Of a stretch of 30,710 bases of DNA, positions 8,233 to 28,661 are shown piece by piece. The stretch spans positions 186,001 to 216,710 of the forward strand of contig LVLI01000294.1 of the NCBI GenBank assembly GCA_001687465.1. The letters are read 5' to 3'. A program made the position numbers and the translations under genes. Source of the DNA: Halocafeteria seosinensis (taxonomy: Eukaryota). A model generated the notes under the pieces. The model had not been told where the DNA came from. It saw only the letters and a program-made list of their open reading frames with translations, and ran no database searches. Numbering within the stretch: the first letter of the stretch is position 1; every line of letters begins with the position of its first letter.

Positions 8233-9441
8233 TTACTTGAAGTAGAACGAAAGAACAAGCTGTGGCATATGAATCCGAAATACGGTGCACACAAAGCATG
8301 CAAGTATGCATAAAACAACAGGGTATAGCAACACATTGGTACGTCTCAGGAATGGAAGTACTGCAAAGCATCACGACAACAGCATCTCCAAAACAACATT
8401 GCAGCTCGGAATACGCAAGGCTTACCAACATATCCGGAAAATGTAATATACCAGTATCCTGCAATGGCTGCCGTATACAACAGGTTGCCACAGACCATCC
8501 CTAGGTTATAGTAATACTGGCTCAGTAGCAGTGGCAAAATTGCGTATTGTCCCACATATCCAATAAGGAACATTACCCAGAAAGAGTTCGTGTGTACGTC
8601 AAAAGCATACATCCATTCTACTTCTTGTTCGACTGCGTGAGGTGTTGACTCGACCTTTAAGTAATTGTTTGCCAGAGTTCGGCAAATAGCTGATATGCAA
8701 CCGCCAAATACAATATATTGCGCAAGTCCATGGAATAGGAGGCGAACGACTCGACTTAGAGTGAAGTGATTCAAAGCGAATGCATAAGCACAGCAAATAG
8801 GCTGCGAGTGGCCACACAGTATGGATCATTCAATAATGGCACAGCGCGCAAAAGAATTTCCAAGTGTGCTTACAAGAATAAAGAAGCATTGCAGCATTAC
8901 CACAGCTGGATCATCCCGCGCCCACTGGTTCTTCGTCTCTGCATTTCCACATGACATATTCTCAATTGGACGGGATTGTTACCAGTTAATAAATGATTAT
9001 TACCACACTTACGTTTACGCCGTTGATTGAGTCTATAACTGCGACAGGGAGACACGCACTAAGCATCGAGAGAGGCAATTCTGGAAAACATTAACACACT
9101 TACACTTTGGCAGGATGCAAGAGTAATTCCACCATTTGCCATGCCGCAAATTGCCAGTCCATGGCTTTCACACTAAGGGCTCGGCGAGCGTACGGTCCGA
9201 TAAACGACGATGACGACGAGGCTCCGGCGACACTGGATGATGATGATACGGGGTGGTTGCTTGAATGCTTTGAAGAGTCTTCCAGGAAAGAAGCTGAAGG
9301 GGCGGTCGCGCCACCCACGGGGTCCATCGATCGATGTGAAATTTCACTACCAGTATTGTCTGCTCTCGAATTATTGTATCCACCACTTGTTTTCCTGTTT
9401 GTCGTCGTCGAAGATCTGTCCAGAAGGTGCTGAGCATGCAT
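8233..9441 (-). CDS. UNC50: UNC-50 family Golgi membrane protein, 5 exons
   Basis: Motifs MDWQFAAWQM, QTKNQWARDDPA, VEWMYAFDVHTNSF and ITFSGY..LPFL.RT..LLYP. Exons ~9441-9104, 9038-9013, 8938-8874, 8801-8426 and 8360-8233. The start ATG is uncertain (low-complexity N-terminus). Confidence 0.92.
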
Positions 9442-10510: not shown

Positions 10511-10988
10511 GCAATTCTGCGGGTACACAACGCCAATATGATAGCTTTGCAGCGAGGAGAATAATTCAATGTGTGCTTTACCGTTTCGGCATTTTGGAAA
10601 CGATGTAGCTTTCCTCACAGCAATGCTGCTTGCGGTAAAAGAAAATACACAAATGTTCTTGTTTGAGTCGCTTCTGCTATGATGTGAATATGTACTAACT
10701 CATTGATCTCGCTATTCCTTGTCGTCCACGCTGTTGACAAAATCAACTATTGAAAGCCGAAGACGCTGTAGCAGTAGTAGCCTTCCGGGAAGGGGTTCAG
10801 TAACTTCAGTTCTCTCATAGGTTTGGCTTCACAAGCAACATTGGGCAATGACACCTTTACACAAGTTGACAGTTCATACATGTAGTTCTCCTTCCGTCCG
10901 GAATGATATCCGCGTACAGGTGATAAGATAAGATAGTGACTCATCTACACAGTGAATAGGAAGGTATTAAGTGGGTGGAAACGGTGTC

Positions 10989-12506
10989 ATGTATAGCTGT
11001 CCACTCCGGGCAAATACGTGGCGTCGAGAGGGCCTCGGGGCCCTCCGTTTATTACGCCATACGCATGTGCGCACAGGGCGTCATACTCATAGCATAGCAA
11101 CCATAGGAAGTTCATCGTCACAGTGTGTATCTTCATTGGGATCATATTTGCCTCCGAAACATGTCTGTGGAAGGAGGCACTTTGTCTCCCTGACACATCC
11201 CCGGCAAAGAGCTCAAAAAGAGGGAGGTGATAAAGACATTGAGGAGGATGCAACCGGTGCTTTTGTGGATGAGGAAGGTCTCGCTGATAGTGACTATGAG
11301 AGAGCGGATGCACAAGAGAAAACATTTGGAGAATATGAAAAGGGAAGGAAAGTAAGCGAAGGGGGAGCAAGCTTAGCCGAGGGAGAGGAGTGGTTGCGCC
11401 GTATGCAGTCAGATCCCAAGCCTGAGATGTTCAAGGACTGGGAATTAAATGCAGACGAACAATCGCATATTGCGCAAGAAATGGATGCGACAGCTGAAGC
11501 CGAGGTGGAAGCTGAAGTAGATCAACCAAAGCAACGCCCTGGAGCGTCCCGCCTGGATGGCACGTACTGGCAAGGTCAATGGACCAACCGTGACCTCCAT
11601 GACCCTCCTTACCGGCAACCTCGCCCCCATATGGCCCCGGCTCAAGATCCTTCGGAAAAACATATACCGGCTTTACGAGAACATCCAATGAGCAAGCAAT
11701 GGGGAGGTCTGATTGATATTATTGAACATGAAACGTACATGTCGAAACTCGGAGATGCTGATTCTGGGGGAGGATTTCATGACTTCGCCATGGCTCCCTA
11801 TGACTCCGAATCGCTCGAGGATCCCTTTTACAACAATTTCTTAACGGAAGATGAATATGTCTGGCCTTCGGACTATGAGCCGCAGCCATACATTCCTGAT
11901 TCTGTAAGACAGCAAATATACTTCTTATGGTCCTCCAAAGGCTGGTCTATCCCCAAATTAGGATCGAAGTTCAAAATGAGAACAGAGAGAGTGTCCTTCA
12001 TCATCAACTTAAAGCGCACCGAGCCAGAATGTATAGAGGAGGGGAAGTATGCTGATGAACTGGATGATGCTATGACTCAAATGTACGGGCGTGAGTATGA
12101 CTTCGGCGACAAAGATTATCAGTCTGAGGATGACGATATAGGGCTGAATGTCAACGTATTGAAAGACTCACAACTGCCAGATGATGTCGTGCCTAAGATG
12201 CCGTGGAAAGGGAATGTCCTTAAAACGGGAACGCATTTGCCTCCCGTAGAACTACCACCCAAAGAAGAACGAACATGCAAACATCGTTTCGCCTTCAAAG
12301 ATATCTCGAGTGGAGAATCAATGGATTCTAAATTTGTACCATTTTCGAAGAAGCATCTAGTTGTAGATCATGACGGCACAAGGCGAGTTTCTACCAAAAA
12401 GGAGGATTTATACAGGAGTAATAGAGCCAGACGGTTTATTGTTAAACGGGATGGTTCTGGTAGTAATAACTGGCCATTCCCGGACGAACAAGCAGACCAA
12501 ATATGA
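10989..12506 (+). CDS. Mitochondrial small-subunit ribosomal protein mS45/Bot1p-like, single exon
   Basis: Arg/Ser-rich N-terminus resembling a mitochondrial presequence. Core PQPYIPDSVRQQIYFLW..KGWSIPKLGSKFKMRTERVSFIINLK resembles the Bot1p helix-turn-helix motif. First ATG at 10989. Confidence 0.65.
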   Translation: MYSCPLRANTWRREGLGALRLLRHTHVRTGRHTHSIATIGSSSSQCVSSLGSYLPPKHVCGRRHFVSLTHPRQRAQKEGGDKDIEEDATGAFVDEEGLADSDYERADAQEKTFGEYEKGRKVSEGGASLAEGEEWLRRMQSDPKPEMFKDWELNADEQSHIAQEMDATAEAEVEAEVDQPKQRPGASRLDGTYWQGQWTNRDLHDPPYRQPRPHMAPAQDPSEKHIPALREHPMSKQWGGLIDIIEHETYMSKLGDADSGGGFHDFAMAPYDSESLEDPFYNNFLTEDEYVWPSDYEPQPYIPDSVRQQIYFLWSSKGWSIPKLGSKFKMRTERVSFIINLKRTEPECIEEGKYADELDDAMTQMYGREYDFGDKDYQSEDDDIGLNVNVLKDSQLPDDVVPKMPWKGNVLKTGTHLPPVELPPKEERTCKHRFAFKDISSGESMDSKFVPFSKKHLVVDHDGTRRVSTKKEDLYRSNRARRFIVKRDGSGSNNWPFPDEQADQI

Positions 12507-12523
12507 TTCGAATACACAAGCCT

Positions 12524-14351
12524 TTACTTATCGGCTTTATCTCCGTATTCCTGGCGACCTTTTACGTTCTTAAGTTCATCTTTAGAGTATTTGTACACTG
12601 AGCCACCCTCATATCCTGCCACCACCTTGGCGGAAATCTCTACCTGAGCATCCTCTGGTACCATTTCAGGCGGGATAGGAACGCGTTCTTTAATTTCAAT
12701 GCCTGATTTGGTTATGGCGTTGTACTTCATATCGCTCATACTAATGAGCTTATCAATCTTAGTGATTCCTAGCCAATGCAGAGGATCGGGCATTAGAGCT
12801 TGAAATCTAACATCCTCAGTACCAGCGACAGTTGCAGTGCAGGTGAAATACCGCTCAGCCGAGTCACCCCCTTCCTGCCGTTTTCGCATATTGTATACGA
12901 GATATTTAGTAACTTCGCCCAGCGCTCTACCTTCTTTCCTGAAATATACAATGACACCGTTTCCTCCTTGTTGTGCGGTCCTAATGCATTCTTCTATACC
13001 ATGCACAAGGTAAGGGCGACAAGTACAAATGTCGCTGCCAAACACGTCACTGCCATTGCATTCATCATGCACGCGTACTGTCAAGGGCACTGAAGGGTCA
13101 GACACGGTGGAGGGATCCCCATACACGTATATCTGTAGAGAGAATAGAAAACAAGGCGAGAACACGAAGTGGTGTAGAGGCACGCAAAATGTGATACAAT
13201 AATTGATGCACATACGGTAAGACCTCCAATGGGTGGGAGGAAAACCTTTAAGTCCTTTCGCGTTACCAGTTCGGGGTACATGCCATTCGTTTGCTCAAAC
13301 AAGCTTTTACGTAGCTCATCTTCGGTACAGTTAAACCGCTCGGCTACACCCGGGAGGTACCAAACAGGGTCTACAGCAGCCTTGAGCACATGAACTTGGC
13401 CGTTCTTGAGAAGTACTTTTCCATCGGGAGTTAAGCGCTCAGAGCTCATAGAATGCTTAATTTCCGGCAATTCGCAGTGAGCCTTGGTGACAGCAATGGT
13501 TGGACGCACATCATACCCTTTGTCAAAGTAGTGGCGGAATACTTCGACAGCCGTGGCACCAAATGGGTCCATGGTTACGATCTGCTATTGAAGAGAAGCG
13601 GAGAATGACACAAGGCAGGGATGAGCTATACTTTCCAGGTCGTTATCTCACCTTCTTTGGATCAAACCAGGAGGGGTAAGGTCCAATTTGAGCCGCTGGG
13701 GTGGTGAGGCTAAAGTCTGGGCGATAGTTAGGGTCGAGAGCTCCGGATGCCACAGCAAGGCTTCGATAAATGCTGTAGCTGCCACCATGGGCGCCAACCG
13801 CATTGCGGGTTCCGGCATGCATAGTGGAGGCAATGATAGGACCGCGCTCTTCAGCGGACGGTGCACCCCACTGCAATATAGAAGAAGGATAAGATAATTC
13901 CACTATGACTTCATAGCTAGCAGCTTAATCGTAGTACATACCTTCAAGGGTACTGGCTTTACTCCTTGAACGCCAGCATGACTGGTGAGGCTGATGTAGC
14001 TCTGGCCCTTTCTCGCCGTAGGTGCTTGCGGAATATGTTTGGCAATAGGAGACACTTTCTCAGCGGCCTGCTTCTTGGCGGTTCCATTGTCTGCACGAAA
14101 TGTAGGTCATGAAGATAGTAAGTTCGATGTTCGCAGCCTCGTTCCCCTTCCAGTTCCCCTTTAATTCCCTTTTTGTACTTTCCCGCTCAGACACCAACTC
14201 AGCCCACGTGCAACAACGCGACATTCTCGGCGTTGCAGCTCGATGCAGTCTAGCGCTCTAACTTACTAGCTTTGTCGTTAGCTTCCGTCTCTTCTGCTGG
14301 GCGTTTCTCACCAGCTTTAGAGGCGGTTCTACTGCTTCTTCTGGAAGACAT
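12524..14351 (-). CDS. URC1/Urg1-type GTP cyclohydrolase II-like protein (GTP_CH_N + GTP_cyclohydro2), ~475 aa, 5 exons
   Basis: Exons 14351-14267, 14090-13942, 13870-13652, 13581-13216 and 13132-12524. Motifs WGAP..EERGPIIAS, RNAVGAHGGSYSIYR, RVHDECNGSDVFGSDICTCRPYL, RKEGRALGEVTKYLVYN and SMSDMKY. Confidence 0.92.
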
Positions 14352-17263: not shown

Positions 17264-18493
17264 TCATGTATTCGAGCGCTTGGCATCGGCTGCCCGTGCC
17301 AAGTTGGTGCGAACCTCAGCACAAAATGAGCGGTAGTTTGCCCACGTGTTGTACGCCAACAATCCGCTAGCTGCAAATGTGCACAATGTTGCATACCGTA
17401 ACGTCTTAAAGCGACGAAGCACTGCCAAATTTAGTAGTGCGAAGGACCCGATGGCGCATCCTCGAACACATGAATGTAGCGCATCTGAAGAGGGGACTTC
17501 ACTTAGAGGGAGGGTACTGTAGTAGTCTGAGCTTTCCCAATTACGCCAAACTCCAGACGCAAGAGCAGGAGGTAAAACTGCGACAGAATGCATTCCGGGA
17601 AGTTCATGAATACTGCAGGTTACAATTTTGGATCGTTCTTCGTAGCGCTGTTTACTAGCTGATAGTGCTAGGTATGCTTGAAATTCGCGAAATTGTTGGT
17701 AGTTCTGTTTCAAAACCGTAAAGGATGTGCGGTCTCTCTCTTGCTGCTTCTTGCGCCGATTCATTTCTTCCTCCGACAAAATGATTGCACCCGGGGCGCC
17801 TTGCGGAGGATGCATCAGATTTGCCAAATTGTGCAGGAAGTGCCTAAATGCATCGATAGTGTCCTGTTCCACGTTCACATCCTCTTTCATAGGACATAAG
17901 GAATCCTCCAACGAGATGGCTTCAGCCGTGAACGTACAGTGAACTCTATCGGCGAAGTCTCGCAAAGATTTCCCCAGATCTGCATAACTACCTCGGACCA
18001 ATGCATATACACAGCGTCTGCCTTCTTTCGTCCACACAATCCATCTCAGTACCGGAGCACGTTCCCACCACGGGAGGCGTTGGTTCTCCACGTACCAAGA
18101 CCGCCCAATCGTCACGAGTTCCACTCCTTCATTTTCAAACACGAATTGTTTGAGCTCATCCCATGGTCCCTGTTGTTCATGGGAAGACCCTGCTATCACA
18201 GGGTCTTGTAGCACCAGAATCAGAGGCTTACTGATACACTTCTCAATCAGTGGCATGATTCCAGGCCATTGGGGTTTGGCGGGCTCCTGGAACGCATTGG
18301 GCCTGATTCTCCTGGCATCGAGTCCGAATTGCAGAAACGCACTTCGCCGTGAAATGGGAATGCCAACGTCATCTGGAACGTGGGCCCTTAACTTCTCGCG
18401 TATCTGAGGCCATTTCTCCTGAACTTCCCACACATCCATGACGTAGATGTCCACCACCCCTCCATTTTGCTTCTGGCGTCGTACGACTTTCAT
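17264..18493 (-). CDS. Hypothetical protein, 409 aa, with two C-terminal hydrophobic segments
   Basis: Long intronless ORF that fills the space between two clear genes. C-terminal segments CAIGSFALLNLAVL and YATLCTFAASGLLAY. No family recognised. Confidence 0.7.
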   Translation of the reverse strand: MKVVRRQKQNGGVVDIYVMDVWEVQEKWPQIREKLRAHVPDDVGIPISRRSAFLQFGLDARRIRPNAFQEPAKPQWPGIMPLIEKCISKPLILVLQDPVIAGSSHEQQGPWDELKQFVFENEGVELVTIGRSWYVENQRLPWWERAPVLRWIVWTKEGRRCVYALVRGSYADLGKSLRDFADRVHCTFTAEAISLEDSLCPMKEDVNVEQDTIDAFRHFLHNLANLMHPPQGAPGAIILSEEEMNRRKKQQERDRTSFTVLKQNYQQFREFQAYLALSASKQRYEERSKIVTCSIHELPGMHSVAVLPPALASGVWRNWESSDYYSTLPLSEVPSSDALHSCVRGCAIGSFALLNLAVLRRFKTLRYATLCTFAASGLLAYNTWANYRSFCAEVRTNLARAADAKRSNT

Positions 18494-18718
18494 GACGACA
18501 CCAAAAAGAGAACAGAAGCTCGAAGGCAGTCAACGACACAATGACAAGAACACTATCCCTGCCAGCTTATAGTACAACACAGTGTCAGAAGACAGTACAC
18601 TTCACAACACGACACGGAAGTAACGACGGGGCACGAAAAAACTACACGAAAAGATGCGAATTTTTTTTGGATTGTTCGTGTTGTACTTGTGTATTAAGTG
18701 TGTCAACCAAAATAGCTG

Positions 18719-21700
18719 CTATGACCATGCTTGGTACTCGTTATCAGAATCGGAATCACTTTCTAAGACGTCGTCGACGAGCTCATGGAAAGTCTGCTGC
18801 TTTTTCTCCCACTTTTCTTCTGCGTCCTCAACACACTTTAGCTTCGTTGCCCCGGGGTTCTTGCGTTCTTCCTTCAAGTCAGCGTAAATCCGCTTCATCC
18901 ATCTCCCGCGATTATCGCGCAGTAAGCGAAGTACAGGTTTTGCTTTTGGAAGTAATCGGGACACTTTCGCAAACAACGGGGCAACGATGAAATCAATAAA
19001 ATTTACAGAAAGCTCATTTTGATTCGTCGTATTTCGATCCATGTTGGCTGATAGAGGCAGATTCTCCTTCTTCTCCCGGTCACCCTGGTTAAAGAACTCC
19101 CCGATCAAACGGTCGCTCCAAATTTTGCTCAGGTCAAATGCCTTGCAACAATTGTTGATATCGGCTGCGTGTAGCAACGTCTTCATGAGCACCATTCGTT
19201 CTCCAGCGGATATTGTTATTGCAAAGTCATGCCCTTCTTTGAACTTATACTCGTCGGGATAGATTCCGTGAGTACTTTGTTTGTCGTTGTTTGTCAGTAG
19301 TTCCACGATTCTGTTCTGTCTACTTTCTTTCAACAAGGTCCTGATACGTTTCTTATTATTCTCAATTACAGAACCAAAGTCTTCAGTTAATGTCATATGG
19401 CATGTCATATCCGTAGCCAATATTGTTGACACAAACACTTTCCTGGCATATTTCTTGTCATCCGCTTCCAGACCATCCCAGAGGCCGTGCTCATTCAGGA
19501 GAAATGATCCGACCGCCGCATGATGGTTTTCCAGTACTGATGAGTCGTTATACCGAATCGCCAGCTCCGTTTGGGCACTTACCTGGTAGCTATTTCCGAG
19601 TCCTGGATGTTCCAGATCGTGACACAAACATGCTACTGCAAGAGCGTGGACTTCTAGAGGAGAAAACAAGCATGCTGCATCAAAGTTGATACACATGATA
19701 TAGAAACAATGTAAAACATCTACGGCGTGCCAGAAGTTGTGATACTTGACGACATCTGAAGAAAATAAACTCATGCGCTCGCATACGTCTTCAATAAAGT
19801 TGACATAGGAGTTCGCAGCAATCTTAAAGTACTGAGGTAAGCGCAGCGAAACGAACATGTACGTAACAATCGGGATCAAATGTTCCGGTTCTTCAGCGGG
19901 AAATTGAAACATATTGAACTCCCAAGTGTTCACATCCCCACAACGGGATCTATTCGAAGCAATGTCTTCCCGCAGCGCCGATATGTGCGCCACAATAGCA
20001 ATTTCGTATACAACGTCCTCCAAAACATGTGCTTCTTTCTCGGGCCCGCACAACACTTCCATCTCTCCGGGCAAGTGGTCGTCGACGTACCATTCGTATA
20101 TCGTCTTCGCATCAAAGGGACCATGCACATCGTCCTCCTCGCCTTCGTAATACAACTCGTCGAAAATACCGTTGGCTGCAGTACTATCTGCCTCGAGAAG
20201 TGTTTCCAGGCCCCAACCGAACCGACCGCGTGAAAGGGAATATTCCAAGATGCGATCCTTTGCGCACAGCTTGCTAGCGGGTAAATATCCTGGTACCCAT
20301 TTGCAACGTTGATTGTGTACAGTGGAGGCATCCAATTGTTTAATTTCGTCGTTATCGGACCAACTGGTCACAGACCCTTCACTTTCCTCTCCGTCAATGG
20401 CTTCGGCCTCTGGAACAGACTGTAAGCTTCGCAACGAAATTTGTCCGGCACTGACTCTGCTTGCACGCCGGCTGTTTGATTGCGCAGAATGAGGACGGTC
20501 TTCTGAGGAATCCTCAGAAGGCCGTCTAACATCGCCTTTGGAGGATGAGCGACGGAACTTTGAGATCCCAAAACTGCTTCCACGCTTCAATCTTGGGATG
20601 CCATTCCGACTCGGAACATCGGACATGACTCCCAAACTCGCCCTGCGCAGAGCATTGCCAGCATTCTGTTGAGACGCAAGGCTCTGTTGGGCAATTGGCG
20701 TGTAGCTCTCGTTAGGTCTAGCGTACTCTGACAAGAACCAATCTCGGTTGGCTTCATCAACATTCAGGAACGAGAGTATTCGCGACAACTCTCCCTGGTT
20801 GTCAGTTTGCTTGTTAGCGTCAGGGCTTCCAGGCAGAGCTCTATTTTCGCGGTCATCAAGTATCTTAACTACAGCACTTACAATATCCTGTAGCATGCGG
20901 TGGTACCAGCTCATTTCTTTCTCTGTCACGCGTTCTTCGTTGTCAGCCTTAGCCCCAATGAGCTCATCCAGTCTCTTTAATTTTCGTTTGACGGATTCCA
21001 TCTCATCACCGCGAACAACGAAGTATCCACTCTCGCTTTCACTGATGCTATCATCGTCGCTGTCAACCGTAGCTGTATCCTGAGTTTCGAGACTGCCCAC
21101 AAAATCTAATGTACCTGAGGCAACAGAAGAAAGGGCTTGTAACGCAAGAAATGACGCGGTCGAGTTTTGGGTTTTCTGTTCCTTCGCTCCTTCATTCGCA
21201 TTCTTTTCTAGAAGTCGTCTTGTCACCTCGTCGTAAGCCTTTGGGGGTAATACAAGCTGCAAGCGCACCTGAAGGCTTCCCCTGTAGATCCATTCATTCT
21301 TATCTGGTTGGTGTGCCCACAGGTTTCTACGTTTGTAGCCTTGAGGCTCGGCATCATGGTAGAACTCCCAGCTTCGCGAAGAGTGTAGCGGCAACTCTTT
21401 TGTTTCGCCCTTGAATTCCACGGAATGAGCAGTTGGGGAGGGAGAAAAGCCACCGTTCTCATCAGCGCTCAATGAGCCATTCACTGTAGCAGTATTTTCC
21501 GAGTATGAGCGGTCCAAACTGTCTGTATCCTCATCTTGTTTTATTATTTCCACTTGAGACAACGCAACCTCGGTCATTCCTAGAAGCATATTTGCCCCAT
21601 ATTTGTCTTTGTCCCACACCATAAAGCGCAACTGACAATTCTCAATTTGATCAGCTCGTACAGGAAAGATAAAATACTGTTCCCATCTCGGGGTTTTGTC

Positions 21701-24700
21701 CAACGTTCGAACTGTTGAATCTTGGGAGCTCCCATCCAGGTCTACGGTGACAAAAGGAGACGCGTACCCATTAGACTTGGCCGGAACTAAGTGTTTGGCA
21801 CTTTCTAGATAGACTGCCAATCTATTCCCACCGAAATCGAACGCTGCAGGCTCTGATTCGTTTTGTATCAGTTCGGATGCAGCTTTTGTCCCAGAGGCAC
21901 TAGTACGCTTGTCAAGAACCGATGTGCTGTTAGCTTGCTGCTTCTTGAGGAAGTATCTGAGCACGAGATACCACTCTTCTGCTTGATCCGCGCTTTCTGC
22001 AGCAAAGTAAAAGCAGCGACTTTCGTCCATTTTTCCGCCCTTCTTGAACCAATGAGGGCAATCCAGTTGTAAAACATTGGCTACGGCAAACTCCCCTTCT
22101 TGAACCTTCTTGATCGAAGCACCTTGGAGAGGCACTATCTGAACAGGTCGTTCTCCTTTCTGCGAACCCCTTTCCTCTTTGAACATCGATAGTTTCTCAG
22201 AGTCCATTTCTACCCATCTCCACTTCCAAATTTTCTTCCCGAAAAAGCTTTTCGTCGTATCCACATTTTTCCGGACGTTTGCCCAACCCGCCTGAAACGT
22301 CGTTGTCGAAGAGCGCTGTACCATCTGGTCGAGCTTAGCCCGCGTAACCGCCTCTTTCTCTTTCATTAAAGATTCCTGAATAGACTTATCTAGATTCTTT
22401 CGCTGCTCCGCTAACACACGAAGGCGCACCGTGTCACTGACGAAAGAGTGGGTGAATTCGTATTGTGGCTCTATTGAAGATTCCGAGCCCACAGTGGGCT
22501 CAACGAGGGATCGGATAATATATCCCTTGCTTTCAAGTTTCTGAAGCAATTGCGGTAACTGGGAACGGAGCGAGTCCATGGGGAAACTGTCATATAGCAC
22601 GCTGAACTTAAAAACCTGCTGAAATAGCTGTGCTACATTTTGCGGAGTAGCGGCCGGATTTGGCGAACCTGGGGCCTGTCCACTTCCTTCTTGTGGAGTT
22701 TTGTCTCCATCGCTTAGGCTCAGCCTCTCCTGCCCCGTTTTCCGCTTGTCTTGCATATTATGGTGAGCAATTATTGACCCTACTTTGAGTAACAGCTGCT
22801 CATGCGGCTCCAGACGATCAACTTGCATACCAAGATTCTTGTGGGTCATCCGACAAAAAGGTACCAGCGTGCGCAATCCATTGACAAGCTTTAAAATCCC
22901 ACCCTTTCCAAAATCTGAGCCTTTGCTAAACAGATCATTCCTATCTTCTGTACTGGTACTACGCTTGGGCTGAGAGGCAGTGCGTCCCCGCTTCCTTATT
23001 TTCTCTTTAGCAAATAGAGGGAATGGGACGAGGTGGGTGCCCTTTTCCACAGTGACTCTATCCTCGTCTTCCGGGTCATCAGGTTCAACAATAACTCGCT
23101 GTTTGTTGATAAGGTTGATTATAACTTCTTGTATCATCAGAGGGTTTCCCTGGGCCTTCCCTTCCACCAGATCGAGCAGCTGTCTAGAGAGAGCTCCATG
23201 CCATTGACAGCAAGATGCAACCAACACCTGGGAATCTCGTCGAGGGAGGCGGGATAGCCGAATAAAATTAACGAACGGGGCTTCCAGCATTGCACTATAG
23301 CTAGAAGGCGGTTCCGGGGTTATGGTGTCCAAGTATTGAGATATTGGGCGAGTCCCTAGGACTAGAGACAAAGGCAGGGACCCCGGTTGTCCCTTGGGAG
23401 CATCGCACGCGGCCGCCAGCTGCGAGACAGGAGTTTAGTGGCAACACAAAGTATGTCAAGATGGGTTGCGCAGATTTACTTACTTCTAAGGCAATATCCC
23501 ACGACTCCGCGTGCATATATAAGGCATCGTCAATAATAATTACAGCCGGTTGGCTACTTACGATTGACCTTAGTAGTGCGAGAATGAGCGACTTCATGAC
23601 TTGCTTCTTAACTGCAGTGGTCAAATTTGATCCAACGGTAGTGGCGGGAATCTCAGTTCCCAGTAGTTCGTTTACAAAGGAAAACATCGAAGATAAGCGA
23701 GGGTCTGGGGCATATTCATGAAGAAGTTCGCGCGCAACCTCAGTCCTGGAGGAGTCTCCACGCTCATTGACCAGCTTGTCCAGATACTGGGAAAGGATGC
23801 TACCCCAGACTGAATACCGTTCAGTCCTAGTAAAGGGACTTCCATTTGAGCAAAAAATGGAAGTCTTTCCGGTCATCATTTTCGTAAATTCTCGTAGTAA
23901 AAACGTTTTCCCGCAACCACTTGGGCCTTCAAGTACCACGCAGCTTCCTTGGTTGCTGCAGTACAGTTGCATTTTTGATAACAAAAGCGCTTGCTTCGCC
24001 GCATAATGCCGTGACTGGAGCATTGCCGCGTCTCTAGCTCTCACAAGAACAAAAGGCCACGGTTTCATTCCTTTGGCCAGCTCCGGATATTCCATGATAT
24101 CTTGAAGCTCCGTGATAAAAATGGACACCCATCTCGTGTCCATATCCAATCGCGGCAAGAACATTTGGCTACCCTTGAACAAAAGCAAAAATTCCTTATC
24201 GTCAGCGCTCTTATCCAATAAACTCAGCGACTTCGCCATATCAGTAGCACTCTTCACTAGCGAATTAAGTGTAAGATCTTCGCCATTGACCTCCAATGCT
24301 TCTGGAAAGTCGCGCAAAGCGTCATACTTAATTTCTTTTGTCAAATAGTCACCGTCTTGGAGGCCATTGGGGATCTGAATAGTGAGAGATCCTACTTCTG
24401 GTATAGTTGTAAATGTGTATCGCGGTGGAGAGTTTAGAAGTAGAACTTCTGTAATGGTCTTCGCAAGGGGGGCTGGGGGAGTCCGAGGTATCATCGACAA
24501 ATACAATGGCTCCGAAAAATTCATCAGATTAGCTCCTTCTGATTTCTTTAAGCGCGGTGTTTTAAAGGAAGGGCTGGCAGATTTCTTTTCCTCAGCTCTA
24601 GCCATCACTTCCCCTGGATCAGATCGAGGAGGGGGAGGGTCTACATAATGTAGGTGTAGATTCGAAAACTCATGGTATTTCTTAAGCTGTTCCAGGTAAT

Positions 24701-26282
24701 TGGTGTGATAGGACGACATATTCGAATCGTTGTTTTCAGTATCGACGATTGGCTGGTAGATCTTTATAGGCATTGTCTTTCCTTTAACGTATATCGCATC
24801 CAGCTTCTTGAAGGACAAGCCATTCTGGCTGCCCTTCATTATTTCCTCATCGACAAGCACTCCACCACCCGTTTGGCATGCGCGTTGCATCAACCTGGCG
24901 GAGAGGTTAACAGTGTCGCCAAGCACGCTGTACTCCTTCCGGGTAGTTGAGCCCGCAACGCCACAGAAAACAACACCAGTGGTTATACCAATCGAAGCAG
25001 TGAGTCCAAGTTCCCATAATCGGTCGCATATAGCTAAGCCACAAAGAACACCTCTTGTGGAGTCGTCCTCGTGAGAAAGAGGGGGCAGACCAAAAACTGC
25101 AATCAAAGTAGATCCCTTATCATCCATCAGAAACTTATTAACCGAGCCTTCATATTGGTATACAGAACGCTGAACAGCGACCAAAACTTGATGGGACCGT
25201 TGCATAGCGTCATCATATTGCGCTGCAGCAAGTAAATCATGCTCTTTCAGTCCTAAATTGACAAATAAAACACAAGCGTTTCGAAGATCACCACCCCAAG
25301 ATTCCAAATCGGGACAGTCAGGGGAGATCCAAGGTAGAATAGCGCCTGGCAAATAACTTCGTAGAAGCCTTTCCAGTTCGGGGCCATGGGTATCCAGGTC
25401 ATCCAAGCCCATCTTTTTCATCATGTAAACCTTTCCCATTTTTGTTAATTTGTGTTTGATAGGCCCTGCAGCAAAGTGGATAGGTGCTCGTTCCTAAACC
25501 TCCAGGTTAGGTAGCAAACAGCCTGTCGGACGAATGGCTTACCTTCCTGATTGCTTTCTTCGGGAGAAATCCCAACGCCATCTCTTGTTAACCGGACGGC
25601 ACCGGATTCCATCACATTAAGAGGGTTAAAATACTTTTCGATCATTGACCACGCTTCAGCGGAAACTATAACCTCTCCTCCAGCTTCAGCGTGGTGCTCC
25701 GCTTCGAAAGCCTGGACTAAGGGTTCACCAACAGCAACATATTCCATTCTGTTAAGTACACCTCCTAAATGCAGTACGGACACGTTTCCAACGCCTATAC
25801 CAACTTTCACACTAAGGGTAACTCCTTCTGCCAGGGCGGCTTTATGCAAGGACTCTTGAATAGCTAAAGCACACTGTGCAGCGCGTCGAGCTCGAAGTTC
25901 GAGTTCATCTACATCTGGCCATAGAATGATCATAGCATCTCCAGCAAACTTGAAGATATCCCCACCTTCCGAGGCGATGAGCTTTACCATCTGGCTAAAG
26001 TACGAGTTGAGATGTTTAGCAAGGTATTCGGCGCCTTCTGGTCCATATTTTCCCATGGCTTCACTGAGCGCAGTGAAGCCACTCACATCGGCAAACATAC
26101 ATACTGTGCTATAGCTGCAGAGCCCAAAGACAAGGCAGTGAGATTCTAGTGAGGTGCATCGGTTGTATGAGGAACAGCACTTACTTTTGCCGCGTTGGAG
26201 GGTTATCCGTCGTATCATGGTCAGCCAAATGATGGACGATAAGAGAGGGCAAATAGGAGGCTAAAATCTCCACGAATTTCAT
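18719..26282 (-). CDS. Soluble-adenylyl-cyclase-like double class III cyclase + STAND NTPase + PH + C2 + GYF-like + class I cyclic-nucleotide phosphodiesterase, ~2450 aa, 4 exons
   Basis: Exons 26282-26185, 26114-25543, 25465-23484 and 23419-18719 (7353 nt; frame preserved over three GT-AG introns of 70, 77 and 64 nt). Cyclase: FADVSGFT, KFAGDA, NKFLMDDKG, GDTVNLSARLM. STAND: GPSGCGKT, IIIDDA, GNPL, YEFTH. PH: WKWRW..AESADQAEEW. C2: PRWEQYF..VWDKD. GYF-like: HGPF..IYEW. PDE: YHNFWHAVDV, CHDLEHPG, LENHH, ATDM, HAADI, EFFNQGDRE. Confidence 0.92.
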
Positions 26283-27056: not shown

Positions 27057-28661
27057 TTATTGAAAAACCCGTTCCCCAACGGAGTTCATAGAAACTACAA
27101 GTAAGAATTTGAGATCTGACAACAAGTAATTCATCGCTTGCGTCCATAACACTTTATCTGTAGACCGAATAGTTACACCGCCGATTCTGTCATCCTCAAT
27201 CGGGTAGGGGATGTTTAAGTCCGAGTACTTCGGCAGCCGATGCTCTACCAGCGACTGGACACAATGAAGCAATTTCACTAGAGCTTTGTCTAAACGCTTC
27301 CTTTTCGAGTTATTTTCGCAGTATCTGCAAGAAATGAAAGGATAAACGAATGGCTGTCAAATAAAGAGAATTTGTAATAATGAACGTACAAAGGATCGGC
27401 GTTTTGCTCATCGCCATGACGAGCTACTGTGGAGAAACTACCCATCGGAATAACGATGTACGGTTCCAACCGATACTCCAGTCTGTTAGCCACAACCAAT
27501 AACATTAAAGCGGCATGGCCCAGAGCGGCATTTACTTCTCTCCAGTCTAACTCATGACTGGGTAAGAGTCCTATACGCAAGTTATTGATGGTAGCCATGC
27601 TTCCGTAATGCCAAATGAAGAACGCATCGTTTGTGGCGTCTAGTTGTTGCAATTTAAGAAGCTGCAAAGATAGAGGCTTAATTGCTTTATCTAACAACAA
27701 AGTGGAGACGGTAACACTCCTCCATTAACTTACCCATCTGCTGAGTACTCTTGTTCGAATGCGATAACTCGAGTGCTGATCCGCAAGTTTCGACCTGTAG
27801 CTGGCCAGGGTTCTACTCAACTCCCACACTCTGTATTGAAACATAGGAGTAAACCATTAGTAAAAAAAGACGTATATGACGTATGTCAATGTCTCCACGT
27901 ACTGGTCGTATTTACGTTTAAGTTCATACTCCCGCTGTGCCTCTTTCTTCTTTTCTTCTAATAATTTTTGCTTCCGCTCTTTCAGCTCCTTAATCTCTTG
28001 CTCCAGTCGTCTTTCTTCATCAGTAAGCGCTTGCTGAGCCACAAATCAAGGCAATAAAATTGAACTCGGTATAGGAACGACACGGCTTTACGGAAGAAGC
28101 ACCCACCAATGAGTTTTCTGGCGAACTTGTATAAATATCTTCGAACGAGTATTCTAAGCTATCTTCAAAGCTACCTCCAGAAGTGGCGGCTTGATACATG
28201 TCGAGCAATTTATCCGTCATCATAAGGGAGTGTTGCTCACTGTAATCAAACTCTAATTCCGAAAGAGTCTGCTCAAACGTCGAATCAGTCTCACATGCCA
28301 CTTTGTTTCGAAAGGATTCCCAGGAGGAGTCTGGCTTGGTGTATTCCCAGGTCACCAGGTATTGAGCCCGAAAATCTAGGCCCGACGCAAAGCCTCTTGT
28401 TGCATACTCTAGCTCGGCATCATCTATCCATGCCGCCCTCATTGGCCGATGATACAGCCGGTTCTGTGTACTCTCTCCGTCTGTGTTTTGCTGGGTTGGT
28501 CGACTATGATCCGTAGGAGGCTGCGGCGGACGAACTCCCTCGGAGTGTCGTGGAGACGAGTGTGCTGTTTCACTTCGTGTGGTTGCATTCGTCTCAGCTT
28601 GAAGGTCCTGGGAGACTTGGGAGGCATTTGTGCCTAATTTCTGTTGTGGAGTGCTGTTCAT
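27057..28661 (-). CDS. ATG6: ATG6/Beclin-1 (VPS30) homolog, multi-exon
   Basis: BARA-domain motifs NDAFFIWHYGSMATINNLRIG, WREVNAALGHAALML, IVIPMGSFS, IPYPIEDDRIG and WTQAMNYLLSDLKFLL, preceded by a coiled-coil exon (EERRLEQEIKELKE). The 5' end is uncertain. Confidence 0.88.

Follow-up and report, generated by a model that had tools for sequence, protein, structure and literature searches.

The window considered here is a stretch of 30,710 nucleotides from Halocafeteria seosinensis (assembly GCA_001687465.1, contig LVLI01000294.1, positions 186,001 to 216,710), whose minus strand carries, from 26282 to 18719, one spliced gene encoding one large polypeptide. Four exons join into a 7353-nt frame of 2450 amino acids plus a stop, free of internal stops, and all three introns (70, 77 and 64 nt) run from GT to AG. 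The protein begins with a tandem cyclase of the type found in soluble adenylyl cyclase (sAC), continues through a predicted ubiquitin-like domain, a STAND NTPase, a PH domain, a C2 domain and a GYF-like domain, and ends in a class I phosphodiesterase (PDE). An earlier reading of the bare sequence (the original prediction) had joined three open reading frames (ORFs) into one 2450-residue frame and proposed a protein able both to make and to destroy cyclic AMP (cAMP). The joined frame holds, with an additional first exon of 98 nt. The parts of the gene are listed below, X1 to X4 being four public sequencing runs and PI3K standing for phosphoinositide 3-kinase.

26185 to 26282, minus strand: exon 1, 98 nt, ATG at 26282, residues 1-33; the alignment of homologs starts at residue 1
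26115 to 26184, minus strand: intron 1, 70 nt, GT..AG, spliced out in X2 and X3 contigs
25543 to 26114, minus strand: exon 2, which holds cyclase domain C1
25543 to 26114, minus strand: cyclase domain C1, residues 34-222, matched by Pfam and aligned with human sAC (E 7e-20); Asp42, Asp92, Lys88, Phe169
25466 to 25542, minus strand: intron 2, 77 nt, GT..AG, spliced out in X2, X3 and X4 contigs
23484 to 25465, minus strand: exon 3, residues 224-884, with cyclase domain C2, a linker, the ubiquitin-like domain and most of the STAND nucleotide-binding domain
24741 to 25328, minus strand: cyclase domain C2, residues 270-465, aligned with human sAC (E 5.6e-26); Lys334, Ser403, Asn410, Arg414
24036 to 24395, minus strand: predicted ubiquitin-like (beta-grasp) domain of the PI3K Ras-binding or adaptor-binding type, residues ~581-700
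22367 to 23981, minus strand: STAND NTPase module (AAA_16), residues ~719-1235, with Walker A at 23904-23927, Walker B, a GNP motif and a winged-helix region; intron 3 lies inside it
23420 to 23483, minus strand: intron 3, 64 nt, GT..AG, spliced out in X2, X3 and X4 contigs
18719 to 23419, minus strand: exon 4, residues 885-2450, stop at 18719-18721
21938 to 22300, minus strand: PH domain, residues 1258-1378, Pfam E 2e-9, with a basic K-x-R motif
21548 to 21823, minus strand: C2 domain, residues 1417-1508, Pfam E 1.9e-14
20042 to 20158, minus strand: GYF-like domain, residues 1972-2010, adjoining the PDE; Pfam E 0.0015, and 2e-9 in the homolog P0008; high-confidence model
18872 to 19939, minus strand: class I PDE, residues 2045-2400, Pfam E 7.3e-74, aligned with PDE4B

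The splicing evidence comes from contigs of the four runs, which represent at most three samples of one study and whose kind is unrecorded. One X2 contig (7759 nt) and one X3 contig (7645 nt) each lack all three introns at the exact positions, and an X4 contig lacks introns 2 and 3 and ends before the remaining one; in X1, a possible source of the window, the gene lies unspliced on a 51-kb contig. Intron 1 offers two in-frame acceptors, giving 70 or 76 nt, and the contigs use the former. Since X2 to X4 also lack GT-AG introns of 63-176 nt in neighbouring genes and their contigs are gene-sized, these runs look transcriptome-like. Transcripts ending between 23420 and 23483 had been named beforehand as the result that would break the gene in two; instead, the contigs of three runs cross intron 3 with at least 255 letters flanking the junction on each side, and because single contigs cross all three introns a gene break there is refuted. 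As had also been proposed, the PH, C2, GYF-like and PDE domains all lie in one exon, the last. A single-base difference at 23016 (X1 and X2) changes Leu1019 to Pro within a variable insert; this and a second run-to-run difference, at 12875, are probably alleles.

Pfam places two Guanylate_cyc domains (E 1.4e-10 and 2.2e-8), AAA_16 (2.8e-9), PH, C2 and PDEase_I above its cut-offs, the composition originally named; the GYF match is below cut-off in this protein and above it in two close homologs. The domain list proposed at the outset missed the predicted ubiquitin-like domain that separates the cyclase from STAND. AlphaFold modelled exon 3 with a pLDDT of 77 and the C-terminal 593 residues with a pLDDT of 81, and some 90 residues ahead of the GYF-like domain are predicted to be disordered. 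The highest 19-residue hydropathy value (1.98) falls within an NTPase helix and the Walker B strand, which leaves no convincing candidate for a membrane helix, and to that extent the proposal of a soluble protein is upheld.

Both cyclase halves have human sAC as their closest solved relative (~30% identity to 4clf), and fold searches with the exon-3 model were filled with class III cyclases. The traits of an sAC-type class III enzyme are present: an N-terminal C1-C2 tandem, a metal Asp pair in C1, an adenine-type Lys and Ser with the transition-state Asn and Arg in C2, and a STAND module after the core. Conservation was counted over 44 aligned proteins, namely 43 homologs and the window protein, from which both domains could be extracted. 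Lys334, Asn410 and Arg414 are found in all 44 and, of the two metal-binding residues, Asp92 is found in 43 and Asp42 in 39 (with three gaps; 40, with four gaps, in a second alignment). Ser403 aligns with Thr405 of sAC, and Ser or Thr occupies this position throughout (44/44). Lys334 and Ser403 correspond to the adenine-type pair (Lys plus Ser/Thr) of human sAC, and the product is very probably cAMP rather than cGMP, judging from these residues. Alignment with sAC and conservation in the family thus bear out the assignment to sAC-type tandem cyclases, and the cyclase and PDE motifs first quoted are all present in the translation. The claim that the cyclase residues are intact stood for the near-invariant Asp/Asp/Lys/Asn/Arg set and overlooked one substitution: the equivalent of sAC Lys95 is kept in 43/44 proteins, and the position of sAC Arg176 is Phe (Phe169 here) in all 44. 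Lys95 and Arg176 are presumably the bicarbonate site, and because of this Phe bicarbonate activation cannot be assumed.

At the other end of the chain, the PDE has PDE4 as its closest solved relative, and its model reaches a TM-score of up to 0.90 (by target) against PDE4. Its site residues are His2111, His2115, His2151, Asp2152, Asp2304 and Asn2307; the three His and Asp2152 are kept in 44/44 proteins and Asp2304 in 43/44, and the catalytic His is likewise retained. The first claim, that the PDE metal ligands look intact, is therefore correct (43-44 of 44, with the catalytic His); a change at a purine-binding position had been missed. In the PDE4B alignment, the "invariant" purine-binding Gln is replaced by Ser2355, and across the 44 proteins this position holds Ser in 29, Thr in 6, Gln in 4, Ala in 3 and another residue in 2. 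The replacement leads to a predicted preference for cAMP. In PDE5A, the mutation Q817A is reported to lower cGMP affinity ~60-fold and to leave cAMP kinetics unchanged (PMC3069055). The fused plant enzyme MpCAPE has Thr at the Gln position, judged by eye from a supplementary alignment (PMC8115329), and is described as an active PDE that favours cAMP over cGMP (PMC5159850). Since active CAPE also lacks it, loss of the Gln does not exclude membership of class I. The unfused PDEs P0141, P0140 and P0142 (Planoprotostelium; a receiver-domain PDE) lack the Gln as well, and Gln-less class I PDEs therefore extend beyond the cyclase-PDE family.

Between the two enzymes, the STAND module keeps its Walker A Lys in 43/44 proteins, the Walker A Thr/Ser in 44/44 and the Pro of its GxP motif in 43/44, together with the acidic pair of Walker B. 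In the PH domain, the two basic residues of the K-x-R motif, which we assume to be the phosphoinositide-related one, are Lys1283 (34/44) and Arg1285 (37/44). Residues 1510-1970 are poorly conserved among homologs.

The predicted ubiquitin-like domain was noticed within the exon-3 model, where residues ~581-700 run strand, strand, helix, strand, helix, strand, presumably the order of a ubiquitin-like domain, and the stretch is conserved in stramenopile members. A profile of 18 such stretches, chosen after the pattern had been noticed, was compared with 177,635 solved sequences; its best match was the Ras-binding region of PI3K-gamma (1he8, a weak E of 0.0027), and the first 22 of 29 matches were to PI3K-gamma. 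The 13 stramenopile-clade stretches alone gave the same top match (weak, E 0.028), and the 5 from the rhizarian clade gave residues 22-73 of PI3K-alpha (weak, E 0.1), which we take to be its ubiquitin-like adaptor-binding domain. The profiles of the two clades match each other weakly (E 0.002, probability 14%), and Pfam PI3K_rbd matches 1 of the 18 members (E 0.009). Against 1.84 billion representatives the profile found 19 matches, none of them PI3K: 4 were known family members, 8 were new proteins that carry domains of the family, 5 had no Pfam match and 2 were repeat artefacts. Atlas searches with the domain gave scores below 0.9 only and no usable match. A ubiquitin-like fold is likely; that it binds a Ras-family protein is doubtful.

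The protein is far from alone. Two database searches gave at least 120 matches each; among the matches listed, Guanylate_cyc and PDEase_I occur together in 44 proteins. All but one of these (43) can be aligned with the model at its two enzyme ends, N-terminal cyclase and C-terminal PDE alike, and 42 in STAND as well. A further search added three shorter two-enzyme proteins. Named members come from Cafeteria roenbergensis, a Paraphysomonas transcript, Hondaea fermentalgiana, Chrysoparadoxa australica, the brown algae Nemacystus and Cladosiphon, Chrysophaeum taylorii (a shorter protein) and the rhizarian Plasmodiophora brassicae, and P0008, a complete transcriptome-derived ORF, has all domains in the same order. 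In databases they are labelled only "phosphodiesterase", "class 3 adenylate cyclase" or "hypothetical". The expectation of homologs in other protists is thus confirmed for stramenopiles and Rhizaria, and the supposed rarity of the architecture was overstated: it belongs to a conserved family. The C2 and GYF-like domains seem confined to stramenopile rows, and additional domains occur in the family variants P0012, P0013 and P0038: a WW domain at the C-terminus in Cafeteria, and a GNAT acetyltransferase that follows PH and precedes the PDE. In both trees P0132, which bears the label Durusdinium trenchii, clusters with Hondaea (support 100), and P0106, labelled Batrachochytrium salamandrivorans, lies among stramenopile-like FYVE-PH cyclases; either may be an assembly contaminant.

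Trees were quick ones (LG+G4, midpoint-rooted), with 169 rows for the cyclase (2 of 171 dropped); 36 of 143 near-duplicate rows were dropped for the PDE, and a second PDE tree and an approximately unbiased (AU) test used 50 rows. In the cyclase tree the window protein and Cafeteria share a 10-row branch (SH-aLRT 99) nested in a 36-row branch with ochrophyte rows (SH-aLRT 95), and Plasmodiophora stands apart with Paulinella and chlorarachniophyte rows. This placement makes a heterotrophic stramenopile the most likely host. In the 50-row PDE tree a sample of 24 core members, drawn from the two supergroups, falls entirely on the same side of one branch (support 90). The larger PDE tree puts 39 of 45 fused rows inside a 51-row branch (support 96), most of whose 12 other rows resemble truncated family members. 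The sequences fit one old fusion with later losses; trees of this kind do not establish a single origin. Cyclase and PDE distances are correlated (rho 0.47, with 0/2000 permutations as high), a correlation that kinship alone gives. The cyclases of P0027, P0030 and P0032 (Chrysoparadoxa, Nemacystus and Cladosiphon) nest among ochrophyte family members, and their PDEs keep the Gln, have Ala or Ser at the Asn321 position and branch with other stramenopile PDEs. A swap of the PDE in brown algae and Chrysoparadoxa was considered and is not supported (AU p 0.356).

Several known systems share parts of this design. In sAC itself (ADCY10), a tandem cyclase is followed by a putative NTPase domain (PMC6023465). 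The window protein resembles it in the N-terminal tandem class III cyclase, the Asp/Asp/Lys/Asn/Arg set, the Lys95 equivalent and the NTPase that follows, and differs in the Phe at the Arg176 position, in the ubiquitin-like domain ahead of the NTPase, and in the PH, C2, GYF-like and PDE domains that replace the sAC C-terminal region. The guanylyl cyclase sGC of Dictyostelium is likewise soluble, with sAC topology and an AAA-ATPase domain, and is activated at the membrane by RasG-GTP; unlike the window protein, it makes cGMP, is served by a separate PDE and has a long actin-binding N-terminal segment (PMC8684759). Closer relatives without a PDE also exist within the stramenopiles, alveolates and Rhizaria (SAR): oomycetes have cyclase-cyclase-STAND-FYVE-PH proteins, and Paramecium and chlorarachniophytes cyclase-STAND-PH proteins, which share STAND and PH with the window family and lack PDE, C2 and GYF. 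They belong to the same cyclase subfamily, the oomycete rows (P0231-P0263) with 43-49% identity to P0008, and the ubiquitin-like domain was undetected in the oomycete rows. Databases contain annotations of these relatives; a literature search found no functional paper on these oomycete paralogs.

Fusions of a cyclase to a PDE had at first been equated with plant CAPE; that precedent stands, and others have been published for diatoms and saprolegnialean oomycetes. CAPE joins a class III cyclase to a class I PDE and lacks the invariant Gln, as here. Its PDE comes first, followed by 2-4 membrane helices and a single cyclase, with no STAND, PH or C2 in the accounts available (PMC5159850, PMC8115329); in the window protein the enzyme order is reversed, the cyclase domains are two and no membrane helices lie between, so the originally drawn distinction from CAPE is sound. 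CAPE, from Marchantia and other streptophytes with motile sperm, has been studied biochemically and genetically, whereas the window family is known from sequence. The oomycete "CAPE-like" proteins of Saprolegnia, Achlya and Thraustotheca combine a cyclase and a class I PDE, reportedly with an origin independent of CAPE; the wording and table of that paper give them the CAPE organisation with one cyclase domain, set apart from the C1/C2 of sAC-type enzymes (PMC8115329). The GC/PDE of the diatom Seminavis robusta, another stramenopile, does place the cyclase ahead of the PDE in one chain, with two predicted membrane helices, guanylyl-type residues and a predicted cGMP PDE, and the portion of the paper at hand does not mention STAND, PH or C2 (PMC4726125). 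PMC13466520, as far as its text goes, concerns a different chimera. A full-text literature search, whose coverage mostly leaves out subscription journals, found no description of this layout, and as far as the available text shows, the published fusions lack the sAC-STAND core and the PH-C2-GYF series. Source and sink in one chain are thus already known; the sAC-STAND...PDE layout, its candidate GTPase-binding module and its Gln-less PDE are apparently new.

These features suggest, on balance, a soluble, switch-gated adenylyl cyclase that carries its own tethered, likely cAMP-preferring PDE. C1 and C2 would form a pseudo-heterodimer of the sAC type and make cAMP from ATP, with the STAND module holding the cyclase off until nucleotide exchange. 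Through its PH domain the protein would reach membranes that carry phosphoinositides, and a small GTPase there could engage the predicted ubiquitin-like domain adjoining the cyclase. Separated from the cyclase by ~1,600 residues that include a disordered stretch, the PDE would break down cAMP close to where it is made, and we propose that the signal would for that reason stay short and local. That both enzymes are active is probable from their residues. Membrane binding driven by the PH domain is somewhat favoured by its sequence, and control by a small GTPase is a doubtful element. A role in flagellar motility is a tentative possibility, by analogy with CAPE and because the named host organisms are all known to have flagellated stages. 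Loss of CAPE is reported to impair sperm flagellar motility (PMC11032487). The most extended form of the idea is unlikely, namely an ancient, SAR-wide one-chain machine in which GTPase and phosphoinositide would switch on the STAND-gated cyclase and the Gln-less PDE would end the signal, a self-limiting pulse generator in flagellated stramenopiles and rhizarians without a membrane cyclase coupled to heterotrimeric G proteins.

A number of observations weigh against parts of this reading. The example of Dictyostelium sGC shows that sAC topology can make cGMP (PMC8684759). For PDE9, the invariant Gln has been called critical to the binding of substrate (PMC3069055), and for that reason the PDE may be weak. 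At two positions beside Asn2307 the window protein departs from its family, with Asn and Cys in place of the usual Ser (38/40) and Pro (35/40). Of the 5 usual calcium-binding Asp positions in the C2 domain, as placed by the C2 motif that we assume, 2 are retained, which makes calcium-dependent binding doubtful. The basic residues of PI3K are mostly absent from the linker, and its weak scores do not discriminate between Ras-binding and adaptor-binding domains. Finally, because oomycete, ciliate and chlorarachniophyte relatives do without the PDE, the fusion is dispensable.

The alternatives differ mainly in how the two enzymes relate. The STAND switch might alternate between cyclase and PDE, making the protein either source or sink and its pulses all-or-none; bifunctional make-and-break enzymes are often under reciprocal control, a precedent that together with the conserved P-loop lying between the enzymes speaks for such a toggle. 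The ~90 disordered residues and the poorly conserved 1510-1970 region fit a loose tether instead, and the PDE has no recognisable regulatory domain besides the GYF-like one, which leaves a toggle rather improbable. The cyclase might also make cAMP that a Gln-less PDE handles poorly, the latter being slow, cGMP-preferring or a nucleotide-binding feedback sensor. Replacement of the Gln in 40/44 proteins, its importance in PDE9 and the departures beside Asn2307 point that way; the metal site is nevertheless complete and the catalytic His retained, Gln loss hurts cGMP more than cAMP (PMC3069055), and CAPE is active with Thr at that position (PMC5159850, PMC8115329). This version is distinctly improbable.

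Two further alternatives would separate the enzymes physically. The long form, of ~272 kDa, might undergo cleavage or alternative splicing that leaves cyclase and PDE to act separately, much as mammalian sAC has a truncated form; the long low-complexity linkers could be cut, and retention of intron 2 or 3 would yield truncated cyclases. The contigs, which drop rare forms, show the fully spliced form only, and two supergroups preserve the complete layout; such processing is very improbable. That two adjacent genes were fused by a wrong gene model, as the three separate ORFs of the raw sequence could suggest, is next to impossible: intron 3 is exactly removed in single contigs of three runs and divides the STAND domain, one exon runs from PH to PDE, and the homologs are single proteins. 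The tethered, switch-gated cyclase thus remains the favoured account.

Around this gene, the window ORFs that were scanned yielded no second cyclic-nucleotide gene. The neighbours identified are these:

2 to 817: ASCH domain
2325 to 2912: ankyrin repeats
8346 to 9104: UNC-50 family
27290 to 27724: Apg6/Beclin BARA domain

Two convergent pairs were also noted. Between 10875 and 14267, a plus-strand ORF with a weak Bot1p match (10971-12506) faces a spliced GTP cyclohydrolase II gene (GTP_CH_N); both genes lie on one contig per run and their 3' ends probably overlap. Between 15000 and 18595, a spliced plus-strand CAP-Gly/zf-C2HC gene and a minus-strand ORF of 421 residues (17264-18529, no Pfam match) also share one contig per run.

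How cAMP is produced and confined in stramenopiles and rhizarians is poorly known, and the family offers a concrete, expressed candidate whose hosts span bacterivorous flagellates, labyrinthulids, brown algae and a plasmodiophorid. It would be another independent instance of a single chain that combines source and sink. Because both share one gene and the tether can be cut, the confinement of cAMP by a tethered PDE becomes testable. The family would also provide a natural test of the "invariant glutamine" of PDEs and of what an sAC-type STAND domain responds to.

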